UHGV virus genome: UHGV-0204105
Strand: one strand, 5' to 3'
DNA from: a virus
Length of the DNA: 64,000 bases
Shown: positions 21,563 to 55,272 of the stretch, in pieces
How positions within the stretch are numbered: position 1 is the first letter of the stretch
Layout of the letters: the number at the start of each line of letters is the position of its first letter
Notes under the pieces: model-generated
Database searches by the model: none
The model's input: only the letters and a program-made list of their open reading frames with translations
What the model was told of the DNA's origin: nothing
Translations under genes and position numbers: made by a program

Positions 21563-22666
21563 TCACGAAAAAAGCCCGATTTCCGGCAATTTTTCAACTT
21601 CGTGAGCGGCTGAAACGTCATGACTGTACAAGTCGTTCATCACATCGCTCTTGTGTCCTCCGGCAAGAGATGTTGTACGTCTGTGCAGATTGCCCGCGTC
21701 GCATCGCGTGAAGAACGATGCACGGAGGCTGTGGAAACTTGCTTTGCCCTCCTCTGTGTCTTTAATTTTTAGTTTTTCAAAAAGCTTTTTGTAGTCCGCT
21801 CCAGCGGAATGGGCTGTTTTTGAGCTTAAGTGACTTAGGAGCGGTTTTTCGGAATCTTCTGGGAAATCAAGTTCTGTAAGGATTTGAAGCAATTCCGGCT
21901 GTATGCCGCATGTAAACCACTGCCCTGATTTAGGGCGTTTCCAGCGTATCAGGCGCTCTTTAAGGTTGATTGCGTTGCAAGGTATGGAAAATGCTGTTGA
22001 TATATCCATACCAGCGAAAAAGCCTAGAGCGGCGGCAATGCGCAACGGAAGTTCGGCGGCGCGGTAAATGCTCTTGAACTCTTTTGATGTTATCGGACGA
22101 TGAGAAAGCACATTTTTTATCTGGCGTGATACGATACTCTCGAACGGGGAGCGTGTCAATTTTGCTTTGACAAGCAATAGCCGGAAAGCCTTGTTTAACA
22201 CGCCCTTATTGTTATTGTAGGACTTGTAGTTTCTCCCGTGGGAGAAATTTTGTTCTAGGTAATTTTGTGCCATTTCCGGCGTTACCATATCCATGTATTT
22301 CACGGTCATACTTTTTAAAAATCGGGCTATAATTCGGCGGCTGGTGACAGGCAATGGATGAATTTTTTGCAGTTCATCAATCATGCTTGCGAGCGGCAAC
22401 CCGTTTCGGCTATGTTCCCCCTCTTTAGGGAGGGGAAGAACGGTTTTTGGAAGCGGCGTTACCGCTAGATGCGCTTGCGGGAAGAACTCCGGGAAGTCTT
22501 TTACGATAACATGCGTTTGCTTGCGTTTGAGCACAAACGACATATATTCCTCATGCAGTCTTATCGCGTCGACAGGGTCTTTGGTCTTAAGCGTGCGGGT
22601 CTTAAGTCGTCCGTCGACGTCCCTAAAATAGGCGTAATAACAGCCCTTTATGCAACGTAAAGCCAT
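21563..22666 (-). CDS. int: Tyrosine recombinase (integrase)
   Basis: FHSLR, GGH...LYSH and RPKSG Lys; N-terminal arm-binding-like YYAYFRD..G....RTLKT; box I reads AGMDIS. Confidence 0.85.
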   Translation of the reverse strand: MALRCIKGCYYAYFRDVDGRLKTRTLKTKDPVDAIRLHEEYMSFVLKRKQTHVIVKDFPEFFPQAHLAVTPLPKTVLPLPKEGEHSRNGLPLASMIDELQKIHPLPVTSRRIIARFLKSMTVKYMDMVTPEMAQNYLEQNFSHGRNYKSYNNNKGVLNKAFRLLLVKAKLTRSPFESIVSRQIKNVLSHRPITSKEFKSIYRAAELPLRIAAALGFFAGMDISTAFSIPCNAINLKERLIRWKRPKSGQWFTCGIQPELLQILTELDFPEDSEKPLLSHLSSKTAHSAGADYKKLFEKLKIKDTEEGKASFHSLRASFFTRCDAGNLHRRTTSLAGGHKSDVMNDLYSHDVSAAHEVEKLPEIGLFS

Positions 22667-24854: not shown

Positions 24855-25361
24855 CGCATGGTGCCGGAAGGCTGGCTGGAAGACTGACTGAACAAAAAAA
24901 TGCGAGATTTTTTGAAAACGCGCTTGCAAAAGTTCCCCGGCGGTGTTATATTGGAATCGTTGGGTCTGATACACCCCGCAACAAGCGGAAATCGTTCCGT
25001 AAACACGATGACGATTTCCAGAATTAAAACTCATTTCGCATTTATATTTTGCGGGTTTGAGGAAGTGTTCCGGCGTAATCCGGAGCGACACGACTTGTTG
25101 CGTGGTATCAGCTTCCGACCAAACCCGCTTTTTTATTGCCCTGATAAGCAAAAAAAAAGCGTTGCATAAAAAAAGTCTAACAGCAAGGAGACTGACATGT
25201 ACGCTTATCTAAACAACTCCATTTGAACTCAACTCTTCCTAACTCGAATCGGCAGATTGACGCAGTTCGAGCTACACGCCGTTTTTGCAATAACGGCAAT
25301 TCCACACAAAACAAAGGGCGCGGAATGGTTCTGCGGCCATAACAAAAAGAAAGGCTCAAAA

Positions 25362-26170
25362 ATGAGTGCAGAAGTTATGAACTTCAAATTTGAGGGCGCA
25401 GAAGTGCGCGTGAACACCGACGAAAACAATAACCCGTGGTTTGTGGCAAAAGATGTCTGCAAACTCCTTGGCTATAAGGAGCCTGTAAACGCAATGAGGC
25501 TTCATTGCCGTGGGGTTGCAAAATACAACCCCATCGTCGACAGCCTCGGAAGAACTCAGGAAGTCAGAGTTATCTCCGAATCTGACGTTATGCGCCTGAT
25601 TTGCAAATCGAAACTTCCGGCGGCAGTCCAGTTTGAAAAGTGGGTCTTTGAAGAAGTTCTCCCCTCCATCCGGAAGTCCGGCGGCTACATCGCGGCGAAA
25701 GCTGACGAAACGCCGGAGATGATTATGGCGAGGGCAATCAAGCTGGCAGATGAGACAATCAACCGCCAGAAACTCCAGCTCGAGGAAAAGGACAAGAAAA
25801 TCGCTGAAGTCCACAAACAAATTGAAATGGACAAGCCGAAAGTCGTTTTTGCCGAAAGCATCGCGGTCGCCAAAACGTCAATTCTTGTCGGCGAAATGGC
25901 GAAGCTGATTAAACAGTCCACGGGCGTTGATATCGGGCAGAAGAGATTTTTTGAATAAGAAACAAAGGCTATGTCCACAGTCAAGGCAGTCAGCGGAATC
26001 TCCCGACGCAACGTTCTGTCAACGCCGGATGGTTCGAAATCAAGGAGGGGACTGTATTGAACTCAAACGGCGTGAATGTTATCACCCGCACGCCTAAAAT
26101 TACGGGCAAAGGGCAAATCTACTTTGTAAACCTTTTTGCGAAAGAATCGAACTCACTTCCCCTGATGTAA
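25362..26170 (+). pseudogene. BRO-N + KilA-C/ANT antirepressor interrupted by a frameshift at ~25955
   Basis: BRO (PWFVAKDVC..LGY; FEKWVFEEVLPSIRKSGGY) ends at GQKRFFE-stop (25958); the ANT tail IRNKGY...NLPTQRS...TPKITGKGQIYFVN continues in the -1 frame, 25955-26170. Confidence 0.8.
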
Positions 26171-31442: not shown

Positions 31443-32461
31443 ATGAGAACATGCATTAGACAAAAAAAGCCCGTAGAGGCGCGTTTCTGTGAATTTTGCG
31501 GAAATCGGATACCCGTGAACGGGGAATCGTACTCGATATACAAAAAACGGCGGTTTTGCTCGCCTAAGTGCTCCGCAGGGGCAACACGGGAACGGAAACT
31601 TGAAGAAAAGCGCAAAAAGGAGGCTGTCGGGAAATGAACGAAGAAAAAGAAGTGGTATTTCGGGCTTGTACCAAATGCGGCAAGATGTTTTACGTACGAA
31701 AAGGACGAGAAAGCAGGTGCTCGGCTTGCAGAAAAGACCCGTACGGGCAACCGAAAAAGACGGTTACCAAAGCTTGCGTCCATTGCGGCGCGGAGTTTGA
31801 AGTACCCTCCTACAGGAGCCGGAAAATCTACTGCTCAAAAAAATGTGCAAGCGCGGTATGGAAGGAAAAATGCCGCCGAAATTACGCAGAGAATAAGGGC
31901 ATGCGAGTTTATCATTGCATCTGCAAAAAGTGCGGCAATGCTTTTGAAAGCCAATACCCTCGCAAAATGTGTTTTGAGTGTGCCGAAAAGCGCACGGAAA
32001 GCGGTCTCAAAATCAAAAAAATCTGCGAACATTGCGGAAAGCCATTTGAAGTCCGGAAGTACAACTCTTTCCGTCGGTTTTGCTCCAGAGACTGCGCAAA
32101 CAAAGGTTTTAGAAAAAATCAGAATGGCGCAGTTGACGAATACAAAAAAAGCGGCGGCGACGTTTTCGAGGCGGTGATGAAAATTGCGGAAAAGAACTAT
32201 CCGGAGCGCGTGAAAAAGCTCCGGTTCAGCAGGGACGAAAAAGCGAAAGTCCGGAAAATTTTGTTCGCCGTGAATGCCCGTCCGAACGGGGACCCGTTCG
32301 CTTGGTTTTACAATCATGTCCTTTTCCCGGTTGCGGGCATTGACTATCGCGCAACGCTTGAAAAAGAGCGTGATTTGGTTCAAATGCTTGCCCTCGCGCT
32401 GGGCACGATTTGGACAAAAAAAACGACGGTACAGCCCGCCGGAACTGACTACAAATGGTGA
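31443..32461 (+). CDS. Two Zn-ribbon-repeat proteins (31443-31637, 31634-32461)
   Basis: Repeated CxxCG..F......(Y/F)CSxxC units. Confidence 0.6.
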
Positions 32462-32471
32462 GGGAGGAAAC

Positions 32472-33641
32472 ATGATTTACGCATCAGTATGCAGCGGCGT
32501 TGAAGCCGCAAGTCTTGCATGGATTCCGCTCGGATGGAAAGCCGCCTGGTTTTCCGAAATAGAGCCGTTCCCGTGCGCAGTCCTGAAACATCGTTTTCCC
32601 GAAGTCCCGAACTTGGGAGATATGACAAAAATCAAAGTGGAGACAATTGAAAATGAAACCGGAAAACTTCAGCGGTTCAAAAATGAATCTGGAGCAGATG
32701 TCGTTGTTCCCGGAGGAGTTGATCTCCTCGTCGGAGGAACCCCGTGCCAGTCTTTCTCATTCGCTGGCAACCGATCGGGATTGCGCGGAGTGTCTGGACT
32801 CGCGCTAACCTATTGCGAACTTCTTGAGACTATGCGTCCCAGGTGGTTCGTGTGGGAAAACGTCCCCGGTGTTTTCAGTGCAAATCAAGGGGATGACTTC
32901 CGGACGTTCCTGCGAAAAATTGATGAAATCGGGTATTCTGTCGCATGGCGAGTGCTGGACGCTCAGTACGTCAGAGTGGACGGATACCCTCGTGCCATTC
33001 CGCAAAGAAGACGACGTGTCTTCGTTGTCGGATATTTTGGTTCCGATTTCCGCTGTCCCGCAGGAGTATTATTTGAGCCGGAAAGCGTGTTCCGGACTAC
33101 TCCGCCGCGCAGAAGCAAGGGGTCGGGCGTTGCCAGATGCCTTACAGCAAGTACTGGTGGTGCAAGCGGGAAAGAACAGCAGCATACCTTCATCAGCGGA
33201 GACGGAAGACCGCTGAACGCAATCAAGGTAATTGCCACCGGCCAGGCGAACGCGGAGACGGTGACAGACCTCTGTGTGAATCTGACCTGCAACCACGAAG
33301 CGCCGATTGTCTGCGGTTATGAAACCGGTCAGGGATATTGGCAGAGCGGCGATATTGCCGGAACGCTTCGGGCGGAGGGCGAGAACAGACCTTCAAGACC
33401 GTCGAATATCATCTGCGGACAGGCGGTGTCGGTCAACACATCCATCCGCCGCCTGCTTCCCGTTGAATGCGAACGCCTGATGGGTTTCCCCGACAACTGG
33501 ACGCGCATTCCGTGGAGAAGTAAGCCGGAAGAAGAATGCCCCGATTCGCACAGATACAAGGCGTGTGGCAACAGCATGTGTGTAAATGTCATGCGCTGGA
33601 TTGGAATGCGTATCGAATTAACTGAAAGGAAACTGAAATGA
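32472..33641 (+). CDS. dcm: C5-cytosine DNA methyltransferase
   Basis: SVCSGVEA (I), GGTPCQSFS (IV), WENVPG (VI), PQRRRRVF (VIII), RRLLPVECERLMGFP (IX), YKACGNS (X). Confidence 0.9.
   Translation: MIYASVCSGVEAASLAWIPLGWKAAWFSEIEPFPCAVLKHRFPEVPNLGDMTKIKVETIENETGKLQRFKNESGADVVVPGGVDLLVGGTPCQSFSFAGNRSGLRGVSGLALTYCELLETMRPRWFVWENVPGVFSANQGDDFRTFLRKIDEIGYSVAWRVLDAQYVRVDGYPRAIPQRRRRVFVVGYFGSDFRCPAGVLFEPESVFRTTPPRRSKGSGVARCLTASTGGASGKEQQHTFISGDGRPLNAIKVIATGQANAETVTDLCVNLTCNHEAPIVCGYETGQGYWQSGDIAGTLRAEGENRPSRPSNIICGQAVSVNTSIRRLLPVECERLMGFPDNWTRIPWRSKPEEECPDSHRYKACGNSMCVNVMRWIGMRIELTERKLK
32824..33216 (+). CDS. Out-of-frame nested ORF resembling the M.EcoHK31I beta polypeptide
   Basis: SG....GECWTLSTSE...SSLSDIL...YYLS..AC.GLLRRAE.RG..LP.AL in the +1 frame; TTG start. 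Confidence 0.55.
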   Translation: MRLCVPGGSCGKTSPVFSVQIKGMTSGRSCEKLMKSGILSHGECWTLSTSEWTDTLVPFRKEDDVSSLSDILVPISAVPQEYYLSRKACSGLLRRAEARGRALPDALQQVLVVQAGKNSSIPSSAETEDR

Positions 33642-37901: not shown

Positions 37902-38574
37902 GAATCATTGAACCGTCCGTCGAAATCTACACCGAATACGACCACTACAAAAAAATTGAAACAATCGCCCGCGTTTGCACGGGCACTCAAGACAAAGTAG
38001 GAAGCAAGCCCGACTTTTTGGATTAAGCAGAATGTGGAAAAATCGCATAACAATCAATGTCCGCGATTATCTTACACAAGGCGGCAAACTCAAAGACTTG
38101 AAAGAGTTTTCGTTCGCTGATGACTACATGACCGTCAAGTTTACGGTTGATATCGGCGTGGCGCGCGAGCTGATACGCCACAGGCAGATGTCCTTTATGG
38201 AGCGGTCGACGCGGTATTGCAACATGTTCGATGATATTGAGCTTATCAAGCCCGTTTCGTTCGCATGGGCTGAATCCGGTGAGCTGAACGAAGCGTGGTA
38301 TATGGAGTGCGTCTCTGCGGAAGCCGCATATCGCCTGATGATTCGCAAGGGAGCCCGTCCGCAGGAAGCCCGGACCGTCCTTCCGCTCTCAACCGCGACC
38401 GTGCTGTATGTCACCGGGATGTACAAGCAATGGGAAGATATGCTCAAGCTCCGTCTCGCGCCCGGAGCGCACCCGCAGATGCGCTACATCATGCAAAAGC
38501 TCGTTGAGCTTGAAGATTTTCCGAAAAACAAAATTAAAGTTCCGGAGTTTGAACACTCCGAAAAGAAAAACTAA
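37898..38574 (+). pseudogene. thyX: FAD-dependent thymidylate synthase, split by a frameshift or deletion near 38020
   Basis: N-part MRIIEPSVEI...IETIARVC (37898-38026, stop); C-part in another frame with VARELIRHR.MSFMERSTRY, PQEARTVLP, LKLR....AHPQMR. Confidence 0.75.
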
Positions 38575-45784: not shown

Positions 45785-47002
45785 ATGAATTACGGATTGC
45801 CTTACAAGGGGAGCAAGAATAAACTTGCGAAAGAAATCGTTGACCTTCTGCCCGAAGGGGAAGTTTTCGTCGACCTTTTCTGCGGTGGGTGCGCGGTCAC
45901 ACACGCGGCGATGCTGTCGGGAAAATACAAAAGATTCATCATCAACGATATTGACCCGCAAATGCCTCAGTTTTTCGCGGATGCGGCATCCGGGAAGTTC
46001 AAGAATGAAAAGCGCGTGATATCAAGGGAGGATTTCGCGCGGCTGAAAGACACGGATGCGCTTGTAGCGACGGTGTGGAGCTTCGGGAACCATCAGAAGA
46101 CCTATCTATGGAGCGAGGAAAATGAAAAGGTCAAAATTCCGGCGTGCAAAATGATTCTGGCTGATACGGTGGAAGAACGTCTGAAGTACTACAGGCAGTT
46201 CATTGGTGCGCTTCAGGACGTGAAAGCGGAGCTGGAGAGGCGGCGGAAGAACATGGAGCGATGCAAGGCGGAATACGGCGAAATCGCCGGAAGTGTGCGA
46301 GAGGAATTGCGAAAATATCTTTCCGAATCAGGGAAAAGACAGAGTGATATTGACAGACTTCTCGGAACAAACGGAATGGCGAATCATTACTTCGGCAAGT
46401 CGCAATGGGAGTTCCCTACGGAGAATGCGTATAACCGGATTCGCGAGGCGTGTCCGAATTTTCCGCCGTATGATTACTGGGGGCAGAGATTGCAGAGCTT
46501 GGAGAGCTTGGAGAGCTTGGAGAGATTGCAGAGATTGGAGAGCTTGCAGAGCTTGGAGAGCTTGGAGTTGGAGAGCTTGGAGAGATTGGAGAGATTGCAG
46601 AGCTTGGAGAGCTTGGAGAGCTTGGAGAGATTGCAGAGATTGGAGAGATTGGAGACAACCTCCGGTGACTATCAGAATGTGGAAATCCCGGACGGGGCTG
46701 TGGTGTATTGCGACCCGCCGTACAGAGGAACGAACGAATACAGGAACGGCGGGTTTGATTACGGGCGGTTTTACGACTGGCTCCGGTCGAGGGAATATCC
46801 GGTGTACGTGTCGGAATACGCGATGCCGGAAGATTTTGTTCCGGTGTACGAGAGGAAAAAAACTTGCACGCTGGGACATGGCAACCGTACCAAGACGGTA
46901 GAGAAAATTTTTGTGCATGAGCGGTTCGTGGACGATGTAAGGCGGAAAATCAGCGGACAACCGGAGCTTTTTGAAAAGAACGGGGAGGCTGTTGCTATAT
47001 GA
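45785..47002 (+). CDS. Dam-like (D12 class) N6-adenine methyltransferase with an HTH-like insert and a repeat tract
   Basis: LPYKGSK, FVDLFCGG, INDID, YCDPPY. Confidence 0.85.
   Translation: MNYGLPYKGSKNKLAKEIVDLLPEGEVFVDLFCGGCAVTHAAMLSGKYKRFIINDIDPQMPQFFADAASGKFKNEKRVISREDFARLKDTDALVATVWSFGNHQKTYLWSEENEKVKIPACKMILADTVEERLKYYRQFIGALQDVKAELERRRKNMERCKAEYGEIAGSVREELRKYLSESGKRQSDIDRLLGTNGMANHYFGKSQWEFPTENAYNRIREACPNFPPYDYWGQRLQSLESLESLERLQRLESLQSLESLELESLERLERLQSLESLESLERLQRLERLETTSGDYQNVEIPDGAVVYCDPPYRGTNEYRNGGFDYGRFYDWLRSREYPVYVSEYAMPEDFVPVYERKKTCTLGHGNRTKTVEKIFVHERFVDDVRRKISGQPELFEKNGEAVAI
46484..46655 (+). repeat. In-frame 9-bp tandem repeat (TTG-SAG-AGM) encoding L(E/Q)(S/R)
   Basis: About 19 units of ttggagagc, ttgcagaga and variants, with one 6-bp unit. 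Confidence 0.9.
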
Positions 47003-49563
47003 TGGCAGTGAACGAAATCGGGCTTCCGGCGTTGCATCCTCGGCAAGGTTGCGTGCTGAAAACGGACGCTACAGAGATTTTGTACGGCGGGGCTGCGGGG
47101 GGCGGAAAAGCCCTATGGGTTGAAACGCCTATTTTGACCACTTCCGGCTTTAAGAGAATGGCTGATGTGCATATTGGTGATATCGTTTTTGACGAAAACG
47201 GGAAAGCATGCAATGTCATAGCTGAAACGCCAATTTTAGGAGATAGGCCATGCCGGAAAGTCGTTTTTGATGATGGGTCTAAACTCATTGCCGATGATTT
47301 GCATCAGTGGGTGACAAAGACCGACGCGCAACGGGAAGCGGAACACAAAAGAACGCCCGAATATCGCGCGAATCGGCGCGCAAAACGTCCCTTGCGTGGC
47401 ATGGGCAAGCGTCCGGATTTAGCAATTGCAAACTCAAAACGCGTGTATTGCAACGATGACCGCAAGTTTGAATCTGTCGTAACGACGGAAACCATTGCGG
47501 CAACTTTGCGAGTGCGTGGACGGCTGAATCACTCTGTAGCAGTTTGCGGGGCAGTTGAAATGCCGGAATCGCGGGAGGAACTGATAATCCCTCCTTATGT
47601 GCTAGGGTTGTGGCTTGGTGATGGTAACTCCGACGGTTGCGGATTTTCCACGGGCGATGACGATGTTATCCCTTACATCCGCGCTTGCGGATTTGAAGTT
47701 ACCAAACGCGCGGCGAAATACAAGTGGGGGATAATCGGTTTAACTCCGCTCCTTAAACGCCTGAATCTGATACACAATAAGCATGTGCCGGAACGGTATC
47801 TTTTTACCACGATTGAAAACCGCATGGAACTTTTGCGCGGCTTTATGGATTCCGACGGGACTGTTGGCGAGAATGGACATTGTGAGTACACCAGTATAAA
47901 CAAAGACATTGCGGTATCGGTATGCTTTTTGCTTAACTCACTTGGCATCAAAGCAACTCTTGCGCATGGTATAGCGCGTCTAAATAGCAAAGATTGCGGC
48001 ATAAAATACCGCGTGCGCTTTATCCCGTGGCAAGCTGATATAACTCGATTGGACAGATACAAAAAACGCATAAAAACGGCGCGTACACCATACTCGCGGC
48101 GTCGAATGATTGTATCTGCGGAGCGTTGTAAAAGCGTGCCTGTCAAGTGTATACAAGTTGATTCCGCGTCCAGCTGTTATCTTGCCGGAAAAAGCTGTAT
48201 TCCCACGCACAATTCATTTTTGATGCGCATTTTTGCCATTATGCTCTGCGATAACGTCAAGGGCTTGCAAGTATACCTTTTCCGGCGGTTGAGTGATGAC
48301 CTTTTGAAAAACCATTTTGAGGGCGAGACGGGCTTTCCGGCGTTGCTTGCAGAGGCGGTGGAACATAAGAGCGTCCGCATTACGACTAACCCGCCAAAAA
48401 TCCGCTTTATCGAATCTGGGAGCACTATACATTTGTGCCATTGCCAGTACGAAAAAGATGTCATGAAGTATCAGGGCGCGGAAATCGGCGTTCTGCTGAT
48501 TGACGAATTGACGCACTTTACAGAGTATCAATACCGTTTTTTGCGCGGTCGCTGTCGAGTGTCAAAACAAGTCGCGATTGATCCGGCGATCAGGAAATTG
48601 ATACCGAATCTGACTTTCCCGAAGATTTTGTGCGGGTCTAACCCCGGCGGTCCGGGGCATAACTGGGTTAAATCGATGTTCATTGACCCTCAACCCGCCG
48701 AAACGATATGGAAAACATCCGCATCGGAAGGCGGCATGCTCCGGCAGTTTGTGCCGGCGAAGCTGTCGGATAACCCGTCTTTGAATCAGGAGGAATACGC
48801 GAATCGCTTGCGCGGATTAGGGCAAGACTGGCTGATTAAAGCCATGCTCGAAGGTGACTGGAACATCACGGCGGGAGGGGCAGTTGATGACCTATGGAAC
48901 GAACAGATTCACGTTATGCCACGCTTCAAGATTCCGGAATCGTGGTACATTGTCAAGAGTTACGATGATGGCAACTCGCACCCGTGGGCGGTCGGCTGGT
49001 TTGCTGTATCTGATGGCACGGATTACATAACAGCGGACGGAGAAAAGCGACCGACAATTGCCGGAGATGCTTTTTTGATACAAGAGCTTTACGGTTCCAC
49101 AGGCAAGGCGAACGAGGGAGACAAGTCAAGCATCAGAGACCGTGCAGAGCGTATCAAGGAAACGGAGGCTATGCTCGGTTATCGCGTTGATGAAAGTATT
49201 GCCGATTCTGCAATTTTTGCTTCAACGTCGGCGGCACAAGTGACTGTTGCGAAGCAGTTTGAAGAGTACGGCGTGTTTTTTGCGCCATGTAACAAAGCGC
49301 CGGGAACTCGGCATCAGATGTTGACGCTACTTAGGGAGCGTCTTACAGGCGCAATCGAGCGCGACGCTGACGCGGGCTTGTTTGTGTTCGACCATTGCCG
49401 TAATTTCATCCGGACGGTTCCAGTTTTACAGCGCTCTCAAAGAGACCCTGACGACGTGGATACCACGCAGGAAGACCACATCTATGACTTGACGGGGTAT
49501 TTCTTGCTTGGCGAGTATGCGTCCCGTAAAATCGTGGTTGCATCGGCTGGTAATGTGGGCTGA
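46999..49563 (+). CDS. terL: Terminase large subunit containing an intein
   Basis: YGGAAGGGK|S Walker A, IDELTHF Walker B, SNPGGPGH, L.GDW, EDHIYD. Confidence 0.92.
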   Translation: MMAVNEIGLPALHPRQGCVLKTDATEILYGGAAGGGKALWVETPILTTSGFKRMADVHIGDIVFDENGKACNVIAETPILGDRPCRKVVFDDGSKLIADDLHQWVTKTDAQREAEHKRTPEYRANRRAKRPLRGMGKRPDLAIANSKRVYCNDDRKFESVVTTETIAATLRVRGRLNHSVAVCGAVEMPESREELIIPPYVLGLWLGDGNSDGCGFSTGDDDVIPYIRACGFEVTKRAAKYKWGIIGLTPLLKRLNLIHNKHVPERYLFTTIENRMELLRGFMDSDGTVGENGHCEYTSINKDIAVSVCFLLNSLGIKATLAHGIARLNSKDCGIKYRVRFIPWQADITRLDRYKKRIKTARTPYSRRRMIVSAERCKSVPVKCIQVDSASSCYLAGKSCIPTHNSFLMRIFAIMLCDNVKGLQVYLFRRLSDDLLKNHFEGETGFPALLAEAVEHKSVRITTNPPKIRFIESGSTIHLCHCQYEKDVMKYQGAEIGVLLIDELTHFTEYQYRFLRGRCRVSKQVAIDPAIRKLIPNLTFPKILCGSNPGGPGHNWVKSMFIDPQPAETIWKTSASEGGMLRQFVPAKLSDNPSLNQEEYANRLRGLGQDWLIKAMLEGDWNITAGGAVDDLWNEQIHVMPRFKIPESWYIVKSYDDGNSHPWAVGWFAVSDGTDYITADGEKRPTIAGDAFLIQELYGSTGKANEGDKSSIRDRAERIKETEAMLGYRVDESIADSAIFASTSAAQVTVAKQFEEYGVFFAPCNKAPGTRHQMLTLLRERLTGAIERDADAGLFVFDHCRNFIRTVPVLQRSQRDPDDVDTTQEDHIYDLTGYFLLGEYASRKIVVASAGNVG
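47110..48213 (+). mobile_element. Class 3-type intein (368 aa) with LAGLIDADG endonuclease
   Basis: Begins with Ala (ALWVETPI); block B ADDLHQW; block F VKCIQV; ends IPTHN|S; YVLGLWLGDG and LLRGFMDSDG. Confidence 0.88.
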
Positions 49564-49627: not shown

Positions 49628-51169
49628 ATGGCAGAAATAAGACGCGATGAAGAACCGAAACTTTCCGAATTTGCATTCAGTGATTATGATGACTTTGTGG
49701 CACGTCGTCGGCGTGTTGCTGATTGCTTAGGTGGACAGCTGATAGTTAAAGGTGAAGCGGATAAGTACCTTCCGCGCGACAAGTGGCAGAAAGAACACAC
49801 CGAAGATTACGCGGCATATCTCAATCGAGCCCTGTTTTTCAATTACACTCGAAAAGCGTTGAATCGATACGTCGGAATGCTTGATATGGGAGAGCCTGAC
49901 ATTGCGTTCGGTTCTGACAAGCTCGAATTCATGCGCGATACGGCAACACAGTTCGGCGACGGGCTGAAAGCACTACAGAGGCGTGTCAATTCCGCACAAT
50001 TGTCGCGCGGGCTGATTTGTCTTTTGCTGGAATCAACAGGAGACAATGAACGCCCCTTTGTTATTCAAACTTACGACGCAAACGCTTTTTTACGCGCAGA
50101 TTTTGTGACGGTTGACGGCAAGAGCGAAATCAAGTTTGTGTTGCTTGATGAATCTGGCTATGACTACAACCCCACGACAAAACAGGACGAATACAAGTAC
50201 CGCATGCGCGTTCTTGGAATCGACGGACGCGGCTACTACTATCAGGCGGCAATATCGCCGGAAGAGTGGGCAAAATTTAACATAGACGATCCCTCCGGTG
50301 ACGTGGTTTATCCGGACTGCTTCGGAAAGCCGCTTGATAGAGTACCTTTTACGTGGTGCGGAGCGTCAAATCTTTCCGGAAAAGACTTTCAGGAACCGCC
50401 TATTTTGAACGTGGCGGATGCGGAAATTTCACTTTACCAGCTTTACGCGGATTTTCGGCAAGTGATGTTTATGACTGGACAAACGCCTCTGGTTGTCACC
50501 GGGCTTAAGGGCAAGGTTGATGAGATCAACAAGTCCCTTAGTGCGCTTAAGGTCGGTTCCGGTGCTGTTATGGGCTTGCCTGAAGGAGCTAATGCGGGCT
50601 ATCTTGAGATGGCGGCAAGCTCCTTGCAAACGATTTCCGGAGAAGTTGAGACTTTGAAAAAGCTCTGTACGGATGACGCGTTGAGTATTGGTGATGCACT
50701 GGGTAACGAATCCGGCGTTGCTTTGCAGTTGCGCGTTGATTCTAACACATCCCCCTTGCAGATTATCAACTCAACAGCGGGAGATGCGATTACAGATCAG
50801 TTGCGCTATGCGGCGCGTTGGCTTGGCTTGTCCGATGATGAGATACTTGAGACACGTTACACGCCGTCCAAAGACTTTGCGGAAGCGAATCTCACGGTAC
50901 AAGAGCTTGTTGCCATTGAAAGCTCGGAATCGCTCACGCAAGAGGAAAAGCGCAAGGCGTGGACAGATAACGGTTACGGCAACCCGAAAATTACGTTTGA
51001 TGAGTTTTTGGACCAGAAAGACGCCGACACGGAGCGCAGTATGGCGGGCGCAATGTCGCAGATGATGACAGGCAACACGGCAACGGGGAATCCGTTTGCA
51101 ACTACTGGAAACGGCGGCAACGAACAAGCTAAAGAGAGCGTAAACAATGGCAACGAGAAGAACGCTTGA
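49628..51169 (+). CDS. Portal protein (DUF4055-like)
   Basis: YLP...Y.AYL.RA.FFN; PPIL..A....YQ..AD; ESGVAL..R; follows TerL. Confidence 0.8.
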   Translation: MAEIRRDEEPKLSEFAFSDYDDFVARRRRVADCLGGQLIVKGEADKYLPRDKWQKEHTEDYAAYLNRALFFNYTRKALNRYVGMLDMGEPDIAFGSDKLEFMRDTATQFGDGLKALQRRVNSAQLSRGLICLLLESTGDNERPFVIQTYDANAFLRADFVTVDGKSEIKFVLLDESGYDYNPTTKQDEYKYRMRVLGIDGRGYYYQAAISPEEWAKFNIDDPSGDVVYPDCFGKPLDRVPFTWCGASNLSGKDFQEPPILNVADAEISLYQLYADFRQVMFMTGQTPLVVTGLKGKVDEINKSLSALKVGSGAVMGLPEGANAGYLEMAASSLQTISGEVETLKKLCTDDALSIGDALGNESGVALQLRVDSNTSPLQIINSTAGDAITDQLRYAARWLGLSDDEILETRYTPSKDFAEANLTVQELVAIESSESLTQEEKRKAWTDNGYGNPKITFDEFLDQKDADTERSMAGAMSQMMTGNTATGNPFATTGNGGNEQAKESVNNGNEKNA

Positions 51170-52091
51170 GGAACTTTCGGAACTCATTAATAATCACCTT
51201 GCCAATTTGCAGCGTATCGGCGTGAACTGGTCGGGCGATTTGCTGGAAAGATTGAACGATGTGCAATCCGAACTGATGGACTACATACTTTCCGCACAAA
51301 AGAGTTTCGGGAGTGCAGGGCTTGATTCCGGAACGAACAAACGATTGAAAATCATCAAAGCAAAAATCGAATCCCTGTTGAATCAAGCGTATTCGCAAGG
51401 ATACGACACTATCAGCGCACAGGCGGCTGGATTGGCTGAAAATGAAGCTAAGCATGCGGCAAGCCTTGTCCGGGCGATGACCGGAACGGCGGTTGCTCAA
51501 GTTGGGAAGCGGGCAATTGAAAACATCGTCAAATATGGACGTTTCAACGGGCTTACGCTTGCGGAGATGTTTAACTCGATGTCAGTTAAGGATGCGGACA
51601 AAATCTACACGACAGTAGCAAAAAACATCCTTTCCGGGTCCACTCCGCAAAGCCTGAAAAAAGCAGTTCAGCACGTCTTTGACGTATCAAATTACACGGC
51701 CAAAACGGTCGGTTTGACGTGCGCAAATGGCATATCAAACGACGCGAGGCTTGCTACTTTTGCACAAAACGACGATACTGTCAAAGGCGTTGAGATACTT
51801 AACTCACTTGATGGGAGGACTTGCTTAGCAAGGGGTCAATTAATACAAACTCCGAATGGGGAAAAGCCCATTGAGACGGTTAAAACTGGCGATTTTGTGA
51901 TTGGGGGAAGTCAAAATAGACGTAGGGTGCTTGGAACGTCCACAAAGAAAGTGAAACAGATTGTAGTTGTTACTCTTTCAAATGGAGAAAAGATAAGATG
52001 CACAGCAGATCATTTATTCCTGATGGAAAACAAGGAGTGGAAAGATGCAGGGAAGCTTAGAATTGGCGAAAGACTTGCCGAAAGTCTTTAA
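51147..52091 (+). CDS. Minor head (SPP1 gp7/MuF-like) N-extein plus split intein N-half (51822-52088)
   Basis: LDGRT|CLARGQLIQTPNGEKPIE...G.KIRCTADHLF...W..AG.L..GE.L-stop. Confidence 0.85.
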   Translation: MATRRTLEELSELINNHLANLQRIGVNWSGDLLERLNDVQSELMDYILSAQKSFGSAGLDSGTNKRLKIIKAKIESLLNQAYSQGYDTISAQAAGLAENEAKHAASLVRAMTGTAVAQVGKRAIENIVKYGRFNGLTLAEMFNSMSVKDADKIYTTVAKNILSGSTPQSLKKAVQHVFDVSNYTAKTVGLTCANGISNDARLATFAQNDDTVKGVEILNSLDGRTCLARGQLIQTPNGEKPIETVKTGDFVIGGSQNRRRVLGTSTKKVKQIVVVTLSNGEKIRCTADHLFLMENKEWKDAGKLRIGERLAESL

Positions 52092-52875
52092 ATGCCTTGT
52101 TTGTGGCAAGACTTTTTGTGACAAAAAACACGCTAAACGTAAATATTGCTCGCCGGAGTGTCAACATAAAGGCAGACAAAAAAGAAACGGCATGACATGC
52201 CATTGGTGCGGCAAAAAGTTCAAGGCAACTGATGACGAGAATTTTTTCTGCTCTAGGCAATGTTATGATTCGTTTCGGGCAGAAAAAATAAAGCAAAGAA
52301 TGCGTCCTTGTAAAGTGTGCGGTACTATGTTTGATCCAACTAAACATGAGGCAGATTATTGCTCTAACGAATGTTGGAGAAGAGACCAAACCGCAAAACT
52401 TTTGCGTTTTTGTGTTGCGTGTGGGCAAATGTTTGTTCCGTGGAGGGGTGATGTTTTCCATGATATTCCGATTACGTGCTCATCAAAATGTTTGGAGATA
52501 TATTCCAAACAGCAAGAAGAAATTAGACGCAAAAAAATTTCTTTGGCGTTTCGCGGCGCTAATCATCCAGCATGGCTTGGTGGAAAACAGACTTGGAGAG
52601 GTGAAAACTGGAAATGGCAGAGAAGTGTTGCTCTAAAAAGAGATGGTTATAAATGTTGTTCTTGCGGAATATCCAACAAGGCACATAAAAAGAAATACAA
52701 GAGCTCTCTAGAAGTACACCATATAAAGCCATTTCGTTTTTTTGAGAATGATTACATGGCAGCTAATGATTTGAAAAATTTAATAACGCTTTGCATTAGC
52801 TGTCATAAAAAAGCTGAATACGAATACTATAGGAGGCATCCGGATGTTGTATGTCGCAAACATAGAAGTTGTTGA
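52045..52875 (+). CDS. Free-standing HNH homing endonuclease with Zn-finger repeats
   Basis: Four CxxC..CSxxC units; HPAWLGG; RDGYKC..CG...LEVHHIKP...NLITLCISCH; AGGAG RBS. Confidence 0.88.
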   Translation: MQGSLELAKDLPKVFKCLVCGKTFCDKKHAKRKYCSPECQHKGRQKRNGMTCHWCGKKFKATDDENFFCSRQCYDSFRAEKIKQRMRPCKVCGTMFDPTKHEADYCSNECWRRDQTAKLLRFCVACGQMFVPWRGDVFHDIPITCSSKCLEIYSKQQEEIRRKKISLAFRGANHPAWLGGKQTWRGENWKWQRSVALKRDGYKCCSCGISNKAHKKKYKSSLEVHHIKPFRFFENDYMAANDLKNLITLCISCHKKAEYEYYRRHPDVVCRKHRSC

Positions 52876-53461
52876 AGAAGAAGTAGATGTCTTCGATATT
52901 ACGGTTGAAACAGACGAATCGTTTATATGTGCTGGGGCTGTTTTGCACAATTGCCCCACGTGCGCACAAATCGGGGGCTTACGCTTTGCGGTTGATGCAA
53001 AAGATATACCAGTTCTTCCGGTACATCCGCGTTGCCGATGTTGCTATATCCCTGTTACGGTTCTCTCTGATATGTCAGAAGTTACACGCCCGGCGGCGAA
53101 TGCCGATTTTATGGCAGAGGCAAAAAGGGCATATGAGGCAAAACGTCCGGACAAGAACTGGGAGGCATTGGCTGAAAGCTCGAAAAAGCGGTACTATCAC
53201 AAAGCAATTCACGCATACGAAGAGCGCACGGGGAAACCAGCGTTTCGGCAAGTTTCCGGCGCCATGACTTTTGCGGAATACTTTGAGTCTCAAGATGAGC
53301 AGTTCAAGCGGGATTGGCTAAAGCCCACTAGATACAGATTGTACAAAAAGGGTATGCTGTCCCTGAACGATATGATGGACCCGGCAACGGACCGTTTTTT
53401 TACGCTTTCCGAACTCAAAAAACGCGATATTGACGCTTTTAAAAAGGCTGGGTTGATGTGA
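52844..53461 (+). CDS. Split intein C-half (52844-52951) plus MuF C-extein
   Basis: AGGAGG RBS; VFDITVE..ESF...G.VLHN|CPTC...LPVHPRCRCC. Confidence 0.88.
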   Translation: MLYVANIEVVEEEVDVFDITVETDESFICAGAVLHNCPTCAQIGGLRFAVDAKDIPVLPVHPRCRCCYIPVTVLSDMSEVTRPAANADFMAEAKRAYEAKRPDKNWEALAESSKKRYYHKAIHAYEERTGKPAFRQVSGAMTFAEYFESQDEQFKRDWLKPTRYRLYKKGMLSLNDMMDPATDRFFTLSELKKRDIDAFKKAGLM

Positions 53462-53554
53462 TGAAATCGTGTTTAGGTTGACAACTTTTTCCTAGTTTAG
53501 AAAGTTGCAAACATGATGTTTGTAACGAAAAAAACAAACTAGGAGTGGTCAATC

Positions 53555-54265
53555 ATGGGATTGCAATTTAAAGTCGAAAATCTGAACAATGTGGCAGAGG
53601 AATTCAAGAAGCTTTACACAGAGCGCGATGGCGCGTTTTATCTGGATGTTGAAGGGATGCCCTCCGGCAAGACAGATGAGGATGTGAAGAAACTGCAAAA
53701 CGCGCTTGAAAAAGAGCGGAACGACCACAAAGCGGCAAAAGAGAAAATCCGCGCATTTGTGGACGAATTCGGCGATTCGGAAAGCATCCGGGAGCGGTTT
53801 GATGAGCTTGAAAACCTAAAGTCGAGCGGCGGGAAGTCGAACGAAGAGTTGCTGGACTACAAAAAGCGGCTCCGTGCGACGGAGAAAGAGCGCGACAGCT
53901 ACAAGACGCAGTTTGAAGCGCGTCAGAAACGCCTTGACGAACTGGAGGCAGTCGACAAAAGAACGAAGGTTCACGGCAAGCTGAAAGAAATCGTTGAAGC
54001 GCTTGATGCGAAATACGACAAATCGAAAATCTACTCCATGCTCGAGGATTATGAGGATATGTTTGCGCTCGATGAAGTCGGCGATCTTGCACCTTTCAAG
54101 GGCAAGGCTGTTAAAGACTGGATTCCGGCAAAAGCGGACCTTTTCAACTGCTACGTTGCCTCAACTCCGGGCGGTTCCAAACCGGGAAATGGACCTTGTG
54201 GAGCTGAAAAAGCGGGTTCCACGGGAGACATTTTCTTGGATATTGCGAACACGCTGAAGGGCTAA
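53555..54265 (+). CDS. Capsid scaffolding protein
   Basis: LYTERDGAFYLDVEG..KLQNALEKER coiled coil; lies before the MCP. Confidence 0.7.
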   Translation: MGLQFKVENLNNVAEEFKKLYTERDGAFYLDVEGMPSGKTDEDVKKLQNALEKERNDHKAAKEKIRAFVDEFGDSESIRERFDELENLKSSGGKSNEELLDYKKRLRATEKERDSYKTQFEARQKRLDELEAVDKRTKVHGKLKEIVEALDAKYDKSKIYSMLEDYEDMFALDEVGDLAPFKGKAVKDWIPAKADLFNCYVASTPGGSKPGNGPCGAEKAGSTGDIFLDIANTLKG

Positions 54266-54321
54266 AACATACACAAAAAAACAAGAAAACCATACATAAC
54301 AAAAAAGAAAGGCTGTAAAGC

Positions 54322-55272
54322 ATGAAAAACAACATGTATGAAGTCGCGGTCGGATTGGCTCCGAAGCAGAGTCAGCTTATCGACTATCTCGTGGAGGATG
54401 CTGTTATTGTGAAGGAAATTCCTTTTCAGGCGGCAACTCATGGAATCAAGAACGTCTTTGAGCGTGTGAAGGACGTTACGGGCCCCACTCTGGTTGACCT
54501 TGACGCACCGCTCCCGCTGGTTACCGCTCTCACTGAGCTCGGTGAAACGCCGCTTTTCAAGATTGGCGGCAAGCTCGAAATCGGCAAGGATAAAGCGGAG
54601 GCAATGCGCGGGAAAGAAGAGTATCTCCGTCGCCGTCTTCCGGCTATCCTCAAGCTTGCGGGCGCGTCCCTTGACAAGGCAATCTATTATGATGTCATGC
54701 TCAAACGCGCGATGGAAATGAAGCGCGTCAAGTCCTGCACAGCGTCAGTCACTGACACCAGCGAGAAAAAGTACTACTCTATGGTCGCCATCCGCTGGTC
54801 CGCTGGCGAAAACTGCGGACTGTACAACAACAACCGCATGAACGGAAGCGCGGAAGGTTCTTTCTTCACCATGGATAACCTTTGGGGAGGACAGCTCGGC
54901 ACGCTCTCCGGCGGTGAAACCGGATGGGCGATTGATGTTACTTCGATGATTGGTCTTCAGATCGAAAATCCAAAGTATATCATGGGATTTGTCAACATCA
55001 CGGAGGACAATCTGCCCTCTTACGCGGACCTTATCGGAATCGCCAATGGCGTGCGTGGAAACGGCGCGAATTCCCGAATTTACGCATCCCCGGAACTGGC
55101 AGATATCCTTGCCTCCAAATACAGCCGCGCGGCGGGCGACAATTCCTTCAGCTCGCTGGTTACTGTTGATACGGAAGGCAATGTCCGAATCAAAGGTATT
55201 CCGGTTGTTGGAGACTACAACATCCTCGCCGGAACTGAAGCTGGAATTCTCACATCTACCCTTGCGGCTTGA
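54322..55272 (+). CDS. Major capsid protein
   Basis: 316 aa after the scaffold gene; biased codon usage; I..EIPF, GG.LEI.K, I.GIPV near the C-terminus. Confidence 0.7.
   Translation: MKNNMYEVAVGLAPKQSQLIDYLVEDAVIVKEIPFQAATHGIKNVFERVKDVTGPTLVDLDAPLPLVTALTELGETPLFKIGGKLEIGKDKAEAMRGKEEYLRRRLPAILKLAGASLDKAIYYDVMLKRAMEMKRVKSCTASVTDTSEKKYYSMVAIRWSAGENCGLYNNNRMNGSAEGSFFTMDNLWGGQLGTLSGGETGWAIDVTSMIGLQIENPKYIMGFVNITEDNLPSYADLIGIANGVRGNGANSRIYASPELADILASKYSRAAGDNSFSSLVTVDTEGNVRIKGIPVVGDYNILAGTEAGILTSTLAA

Follow-up and report, generated by a model that had tools for sequence, protein, structure and literature searches.

The closest described relatives of the locus reported here are the fractured genes of Dassa 2009 (PMC2677866), in which an extein with the N-terminal half of an intein (IntN), a free-standing endonuclease gene, and the C-terminal half (IntC) with the other extein follow one another on one strand. 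The accessible part of that paper lists gp41-1, gp41-8, IMPDH-1, NrdJ-1, NrdA-2, DnaE, ligase and terminase, with nucleases that are GIY-YIG or Vsr-like and HNH predicted only; it also cites Aeh1 NrdA, which is split by the HNH gene mobE with no intein and whose halves work unligated. In the text available, Gosselin et al. (bioRxiv 10.1101/2025.01.02.630785) describe actinobacteriophage minor-capsid inteins that are contiguous, all with non-canonical nucleases, give the host family as IPR006528, and propose invasion by free-standing nucleases; the accessible portion of PMC10448857 treats collaborative homing of free-standing nucleases and introns. Here we analyse UHGV virus genome UHGV-0204105, a viral DNA stretch of 64,000 nucleotides (nt; hereafter the window, 64 kb, with close relatives of 61-65 kb), in which the gene for the MuF/gp7 minor capsid protein (MuF) is interrupted, between the codons for LDGRT and CPTC, by 1130 nt holding IntN, an HNH endonuclease gene and IntC on one strand. 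The locus is a member of the known fractured-gene class (Dassa 2009). What is new, as far as we searched, is the virion-protein host, the HNH nuclease, the evidence for homing while split, and the presence of most modelled stages at one site. The parts of the locus, including its ribosome-binding sites (RBSs) and with lengths in amino acids (aa), are as follows.

51147..51821, + strand: N-extein, MuF/gp7 minor capsid residues 1-225, ending LDGRT (profile matches; ungapped joined match to 8/8 intact homologues)
51807..51821, + strand: 5' flank that would have travelled with the cassette, a putative co-conversion tract of 10-21 nt (split locus L088 compared with the window and with the intact allele L004)
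51822..52091, + strand: IntN, 89 aa plus stop, Cys1, block B T61/H64, net charge +6 (profiles; gp41-1 likeness; dN/dS, the ratio of nonsynonymous to synonymous substitution rates)
52013..52041, + strand: possible hairpin over the HNH RBS AAGGAG (52032-52037), not significant (52013-21 pairs with 52033-41 in the minimum-energy fold; z -0.95, 38/200 shuffles equal)
52045..52875, + strand: free-standing HNH endonuclease gene, 276 aa, probable start codon (PF01844 above cut-off; PHROG 1271, E 7e-32)
52831..52836, + strand: AGGAGG, RBS of ORF3, within the HNH coding sequence (kept in L001, L088 and L089)
52844..52951, + strand: IntC, 36 aa, block F Asp, DESF without the block-F His, ending His-Asn, net charge -9 (TIGR01443 above cut-off)
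52952..53461, + strand: C-extein, MuF residues 226-394, first residue Cys+1 (CPTC...HPRCRC; profiles; joined match)

The first open reading frame (ORF1, 51147-52091) encodes 314 aa, 225 of extein and 89 of IntN, and closes with TAA at 52089-91; ORF3 (52844-53461) encodes 205 aa, of which 36 are IntC, ending VLHN, and 169 are extein. ORF1, the HNH gene and ORF3 lie in frames 0, 1 and 2, respectively, AAGGAG stands 7 nt 5' of the HNH ATG and AGGAGG 7 nt 5' of the ORF3 ATG, and the HNH gene shares 47 nt with IntN and 32 nt with IntC (52844-52875). Across 51822-52960 there are 31 stops in the IntN frame and 13 in the IntC frame, and the cassette has a G+C content of 38-41% versus 48-49% in the exteins. 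This agrees in coordinates, lengths, frames and RBSs with the original prediction, which had read from the DNA letters a split MuF/gp7 motif LDGRT-CPTC, an IntN of 89 aa with Cys1, a block B TADH and a stop, an HNH gene in a second frame with its own RBS, and an ORF3 in the third frame whose 36-aa IntC ends in VLHN before Cys+1. The insertion falls precisely between T and C: TIGR01641 (SPP1 gp7) aligns ORF1 157-226 with profile positions 5-72 and ORF3 37-71 with positions 72-108, and the halves cover positions 15-239 and 239-365 of PHROG 241 (E 1e-27 each; 7e-65 for the intact protein P0010), so that the two MuF halves meet at a single column of each profile. The TIGR01641 half-matches and the Pfam intein matches are below curated cut-offs, as is TIGR01445 on ORF1 (23.4 vs 24.5 bits), while TIGR01443 on ORF3 and PF01844 on the HNH protein are above theirs; PF04233 is precomputed on intact homologues of the MuF protein.

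Compared with the accessible text of Dassa 2009, the order of parts is the same, the break is likewise at the usual nuclease loop, and the sizes are similar: IntN of 88-105 aa there and 89 here, IntC of 33-54 and 36, and an overlap of nuclease and IntC start of 6-69 nt and 32 nt. Opposite charges of the two halves, RBS hairpins (here in relatives) and a nuclease-less split form (gp41-7 there; L090 and L094 here) are also shared, and the nearest solved intein of the window is gp41-1, itself one of that set. The locus differs in that its host is a virion structural protein rather than an enzyme, its nuclease is HNH rather than GIY-YIG or Vsr-like, and the nuclease gene is preceded by a 47-nt overlap rather than a gap of 27-51 nt; moreover, recent transfer between divergent phages is visible here, and the nuclease family also occurs free-standing beside the intact host gene. 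Like Aeh1 NrdA with mobE, as cited in PMC2677866, it shows an HNH gene fracturing a phage gene into two ORFs. The original prediction knew of no described case in a virion MuF protein. For the split form this holds in the open-licence literature, where we found none, with the limit that the supplementary tables of Gosselin et al. could hold one; it does not extend to contiguous inteins, which are known in the family from the text available of that study (Gosselin 2025), and a packaging terminase is among the Dassa 2009 hosts. In the parts available, PMC4760082 leaves capsid and gp7 unmentioned, and PMC5512222 treats MuF as a head component, with inteins unmentioned.

The three-gene arrangement recurs in independent sequences. 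L001 has three ORFs of identical length in the same frames, at 92-95% aa identity, and L001, L088 and L089 have the same stops and starts as the window. We also compared contigs from four sequencing runs, each of a different study (pig gut by label in three cases, dust in the fourth), of which the best-matching run may be the window's own sample: in X1 a single contig covers the whole stretch, with 83 substitutions and 0 indels within the three genes, and the contigs of all four runs are free of cassette indels. X5 also has a contig that joins 51821 to 52952, omitting exactly 1130 nt, and so shows the empty allele in DNA. Intact L002, L003 and P0010-P0017 are 394 aa long, exactly the 225+169 aa proposed for the mature protein, and the window exteins placed end to end match 8/8 intact homologues tested without a gap, with 353-382 of 394 residues identical. 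Every part of the locus is under purifying selection, with dN/dS against L001 of 0.06 for the N-extein, 0.05 for IntN, 0.10 for the HNH gene, 0.02 for IntC and 0.05 for the C-extein. Together with the catalytic residues and the many independent loci described below, the intact alleles and this selection bear out the reading as a fractured gene. The mobility, the size of the family and the occurrence of the HNH on its own go beyond the original prediction.

The residues that mark a class 1 intein are present in the window (Cys1, block B TxxH, block F Asp, His-Asn and Cys+1); the block-F His is missing. The closest solved structure to IntN is the gp41-1 intein (E 5e-8; about one third identical over 76 columns), a likeness confined to IntN, as IntC alone showed none to solved inteins in sequence comparison. 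IntC is acidic in 12/12 split loci scored, and the +1 residue is Cys or Ser in 15/15 split loci. From these features it is likely that the halves are rejoined after translation, by trans-splicing, into a 394-aa MuF.

The cassette also carries marks of movement. It is 97.9-98.0% identical between the window and L088/L089, in exteins that are 60.5-63.6% identical, and the exteins of L088/L089 share 91-97% identity with the intact allele L004. Over the last 15 nt before the insertion L088 equals the window at 15/15 positions, synonymous positions included, and L004 at 8/15; over the first 15 nt after it L088 equals L004 at 15/15 and the window at 10/15, so there is no 3' tract. The extein tree places L088 beside intact L004 and groups the window with L001 and the intact alleles L002/L003 (SH-like approximate likelihood ratio test, SH-aLRT, 99 for both). 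Since a near-identical cassette sits in divergent exteins and brings a 5' co-conversion tract, it likely homes while split; a donor like the window, homing with co-conversion on one side only, would be expected to leave this pattern. The residue at -1 is Thr in 22/22 distinct intein-bearing junctions and Val or Ile in the intact lineage-L004 proteins P0028 and P0029, and among intact junctions Thr followed by Cys/Ser occurs in 31/36. Gosselin et al. likewise found identical inteins within divergent exteins, as a sign of horizontal spread. At L004:6017-7216 we noted a 399-aa gene after the scaffold gene that looks unlike the window's 316-aa capsid gene, so cassette transfer may have crossed capsid types.

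The HNH protein carries N-terminal CxxC/[YF]CSxxC repeats, an NHPxWxGG motif and a C-terminal HNH domain whose HNH residues are invariant in 8/8 aligned sequences; its best structural match is PDB 5h0m, and at a dN/dS of 0.10 the intact HNH motif and DNA-binding modules are kept under selection. The gene is absent from all three near-complete cassette-free close relatives (G001, G002 and G003; 96-100% complete) and present in the one relative that has the cassette. A packaging cofactor was considered. HNH proteins of the HK97 gp74 type have a packaging role, and an HNH domain encoded in the head module is common to both; the window protein differs in its 276 aa with repeated Cys motifs, its position inside a gene and its absence from those three relatives, and we reject this candidate on that absence.

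Taken together, a 1130-nt cassette splits MuF into two separately initiated ORFs, and we consider it likely that their products associate through the intein halves and trans-splice, and that the HNH nuclease cuts empty alleles and so spreads the cassette in its split state. In the sequence of events we envisage, three proteins would be translated from one late transcript by re-initiation at overlapping starts; IntN and IntC would associate, aided by their opposite charges (+6/-9), and class 1 splicing through the residues named above would yield the 394-aa MuF. The HNH nuclease would nick or cut cassette-free MuF at or just 5' of the insertion site, and gene conversion after the cut would carry 10-21 nt of 5' flank along with the cassette. 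As to origin, a free-standing HNH gene linked to MuF, together with its own promoter/RBS leader, may have entered a MuF mini-intein at the nuclease loop, and within the family this probably happened repeatedly.

To place the window in this family, we built a profile of the junction and IntN from 12 rows, 8 of them from split loci and thus biased to split loci, and ran it on 1.84 billion 50%-cluster representatives, of which the best 150 were classified: 80 had other hosts or sites, 57 ended at IntN and 13 continued. The 57 stop 86-107 aa after Cys1, 40 of them at 86-90; contig ends could shorten a few, but not at one position. Of these, 52 are full-length with a MuF match, and TxxH is present in 56/57. 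Three of the 13 continuing representatives lack a MuF N-extein match and bear several intein-like domains. The order IntN-HNH-IntC occurs at 12 loci besides the window (L001, L088, L089, L010, L012, L013, L015, L097, L108, L116, L182 and L183), one of them in a Nitrosomonas metagenome-assembled genome; the L183 extein gave no match to the MuF profiles used. Frame offsets take five combinations among the 12 split loci scored, and a non-coding hairpin gap separates IntN from HNH in at least six (L010, L012, L015, L097, L108 and L183), most with a clear RBS. Two split loci lack an intact HNH and show a purine-rich site ahead of IntC: L090, whose halves lie about 20 nt apart, and L094 (325-545), where a short, decayed remnant of the HNH and a stretch resembling a hairpin separate them. 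The same site also holds contiguous mini-inteins (L014, L092, L180 and L018) and contiguous inteins with a nuclease overprinted in the +1 frame, which is the same HNH in L011 (4664-5902), GIY-YIG in L016 (3830-5080) and L095 (1753-2904), and a DUF559 nuclease in L096 (4016-5284); by eye, P0099, P0139 and P0147 are similar to these overprinted MuF inteins. IPR006528 being the MuF/gp7 domain, the host family is shared with the actinobacteriophage inteins, and so is the model of invasion by a free-standing nuclease. In the text available of Gosselin et al., out-of-frame nucleases are reported as in L011, L016, L095 and L096, and the split intein named there sits in a nucleotidyltransferase rather than a minor capsid protein. 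The intein tree (120 columns) is mostly unresolved, and we therefore make no claim of re-fusion from split to contiguous forms. Among 50,697 records of cultured phages we found no MuF split intein like the window's, 2 weak unannotated IntN matches and 14 distant HNHs (27-37% identity), and the GTDB genomes gave one locus (L097).

The nuclease is found in more than one setting. The best 24 viral HNH loci comprise 7 split inteins, 1 overprinted intein, 12 genes downstream of MuF and 4 without a MuF match; the 12 downstream HNHs, several of them near-copies, lie at most about 100 nt from an intact, intein-free MuF gene, and in 55 weaker HNH loci a MuF match is nearby in only 2. The downstream type (L099, L100, L102-L105, L109-L112, L120 and L121) mostly stands behind a two-hairpin leader, and in 6 of these 12 loci (three distinct alleles) the DxRT motif has a Val, possibly a self-protected target. 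In the HNH tree the intein-associated and downstream contexts are intermixed. Approximately unbiased (AU) tests under LG+G4, which omit 10 of 35 rows (3 near-duplicates, the long-branch L121 and 6 distant outgroups), reject a single clade of intein-associated HNHs (p 3.7e-5) and also one of downstream HNHs (p 8e-4), and the full tree under a mixture model likewise needs several context changes. As in collaborative homing, in the accessible text of PMC10448857, a free-standing nuclease lies beside a gene whose conserved site hosts a self-splicing element; here the element is an intein, the target site is a putative one, and no locus with both an intein and a downstream HNH was seen among those examined, so that the collaborative stage proper is absent from the set.

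The leaders before the HNH genes look alike by eye in split and downstream contexts: a TATAAT-like box, a hairpin, CTAACCA/CCTACCA, and a hairpin over the RBS. In L010, L015 and L097 the IntN stop falls within the TATAAT-like box, which fits the expectation of Dassa's model. Statistical support for a shared leader is modest: a profile of 8 downstream-type leaders gave weak matches in L010 (E 0.015), L012 (E 1.8) and L108 (E 6.8); the window and the remaining split loci had no match. Gap hairpins before HNH reach z -3.1 in L010, -3.4 in L097, -2.05 in L012 and -1.3 in L015. RNAalifold on 12 HNH leaders returned only 4 consensus pairs (-1.8 kcal/mol), so we claim no covariation, and Rfam gave no match in 7 such leader loci. 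A sigma-70 scan of the window found 5 sites with 4.1 expected, and accordingly no promoter is claimed there.

It is tempting to go further and suggest, tentatively and with somewhat less than even confidence, that the fractured intein at the MuF site is a stable element able to move by itself rather than a transitional stage, and the most frequent of the intein forms sampled, and that it arose repeatedly as a downstream, MuF-targeting HNH moved with its promoter-hairpin leader into an intein at its own target. If so, inteins would have their own version of the free-standing-nuclease route that has been put forward for mobile introns; one site would display a series of intact gene, intact gene with downstream HNH, mini-intein, split intein with HNH, overprinted form and nuclease-less split form; and the natural split-intein pairs at hand, divergent and with Cys+1 and Ser+1, would number at least 57.

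Several observations weigh against our account of the locus. The window HNH sits on a long branch as sister to the whole remainder of the MuF-linked HNHs and is without their intergenic leader, which makes the proposed origin from a MuF-linked HNH indirect for the window copy; nor is the direction of change given by the HNH tree, which is rooted by outgroup only, or by the mostly unresolved intein tree. There is no gap before the window HNH gene, and its RBS hairpin, with a z of -0.95, is not significant. The co-conversion tract is read from one intact lineage-B DNA allele (L004) and two protein alleles, and a rescan for further intact lineage-B DNA alleles found none besides L004. The charge of IntN is not always basic (7 positive, 3 neutral and 2 negative among the 12 split loci scored). 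At the block-F position where many relatives have His, the window IntC has Glu, and loss of this His may slow splicing. Finally, the portal of SPP1 targets gp7 to the procapsid, yet gp7 is dispensable for assembly and about 25% of gp7-less virions are infectious (PMC6316719, in the part accessible), so a need for the ligated product is not given. By analogy, such a partial need for gp7 may make MuF tolerant of invasions of this kind.

The alternative that survives best, though an improbable one, is that the halves are real genes whose products bind through the intein fragments but work unspliced (compare Aeh1 NrdA), or are cleaved only. The missing block-F His would suit it, as would the dispensability of SPP1 gp7 (PMC6316719) and the fractured genes functional without ligation cited in Dassa 2009 (PMC2677866), both as far as the accessible texts go. 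However, Cys1, TxxH (56/57), the terminal Asn and the +1 nucleophile (15/15) are kept, with distant proteins only 25-39% identical to ORF1, and the break severs the extein directly before its CxxC...HxxCRC motif. Programmed recoding, by two +1 frameshifts or a hop, would instead yield one contiguous intein with HNH inside, and the frames invite the thought: IntN ends CTT-TAA, where HNH is in the +1 frame, IntC is again +1 from HNH, and a contiguous overprinted version exists (L011). A CTT-stop resembles the prfB shift site. We regard this as very unlikely, given that the five combinations of frame offsets argue against a conserved frameshift, that at least six loci have the non-coding hairpin gap and most of them a clear RBS, that a purine-rich site stands ahead of IntC in L090 and L094, which are split but lack an intact HNH, and that no strong Shine-Dalgarno-like run precedes the IntN stop.

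Less likely again is that a selfish cassette crippled a dispensable gene and left the halves as passengers of little function. Homing would spread the cassette whatever its cost, and the accessible text of PMC6316719 shows SPP1 assembling without gp7, with about 25% of virions infectious; against this, dN/dS is 0.05-0.06 for the two exteins and 0.02-0.05 for the two halves of the intein, near-identical copies occur without decay, and the arrangement is repeated at the 12 other loci. That an RNA intron removes the HNH segment, restoring a contiguous mini-intein mRNA, is hardly credible. HNH genes are frequent in phage introns (PMC10448857), but IntC has its own RBS and start, and the overlap of HNH with both intein halves leaves no non-coding room for an intron. 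A family search of 50500-54500 at E<=1 found no intron family and no group I/II ribozyme core around the HNH ORF, the one match being a small RNA at 18.9 bits against a 95-bit threshold; in the RNA runs, 0.06-0.13 of words were present. Least credible of all, sequencing or assembly errors could in principle have broken a contiguous intein with an in-frame HNH, as two indels can yield three same-strand ORFs with short overlaps, but the identical stops and starts of L001, L088 and L089 and the contigs of four runs from four studies without a cassette indel rule this out, in keeping with the earlier argument from three frames, overlapping ends and separate RBSs.

A split, trans-spliced and mobile MuF, if that is what the locus encodes, bears on several questions. 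Protein ligation relies heavily on natural split inteins, several of which were taken from the few Global Ocean Sampling (GOS) fractured genes; at the MuF site there are dozens of natural pairs, divergent and about as small as gp41-1, that could be screened for orthogonality and for speed. The gene-breaking model of Dassa and the nuclease-invasion model of Gosselin rested, in the accessible texts, on scattered cases, and with most stages at one site, a candidate donor nuclease and a recent transfer pointing to the cut site they become directly testable. The locus further suggests that trans-splicing can be a requirement for a virion protein, and that such loci are routinely called as two truncated genes by annotation pipelines.

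The MuF gene lies where it would be expected in a tailed phage, between the portal and the scaffold and major capsid genes.

49628..51169, + strand: portal gene, overlapping the MuF start (PHROG 145, E 3e-69)
53555-54265, + strand: scaffold gene (PHROG 206)
54322-55272, + strand: major capsid gene, 316 aa (NF045672, E 4e-15, below its cut-off)

Within the gene for the terminase large subunit (46999-49563) lies a contiguous intein that spans about residues 38-405 and includes a LAGLIDADG domain. It begins with Ala after the Walker A GGGK and looks like a class 3 intein. It is present in G001 and G005 and absent in G002 and G003, a patchy distribution that makes it a second mobile intein in the head module, varying independently of the MuF cassette. 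Directly upstream of the terminase, 45785-47002 encodes a D12-class adenine methyltransferase that is interrupted internally by a LQSLESLE-like repeat of low complexity, and a C5 cytosine methylase lies at 32274-33641. An integrase-like gene (21563-22666, - strand) and a BRO-N/antirepressor gene (25257-25958) suggest a temperate phage, so that the window, judged by gene content, probably comes from a temperate phage with two methylases; a ThyX-like gene is at 37975-38574. We also noted a second intein site in apparent MuF-type genes, PPNGWN|C in a motif equivalent to HxxCRC, in L025, L035, L040-L043, L048, L052, L058, L060-L063, L066-L068, L070, L071 and L095, and L095, P0065, P0135 and P0156 appear to bear inteins at both MuF sites.

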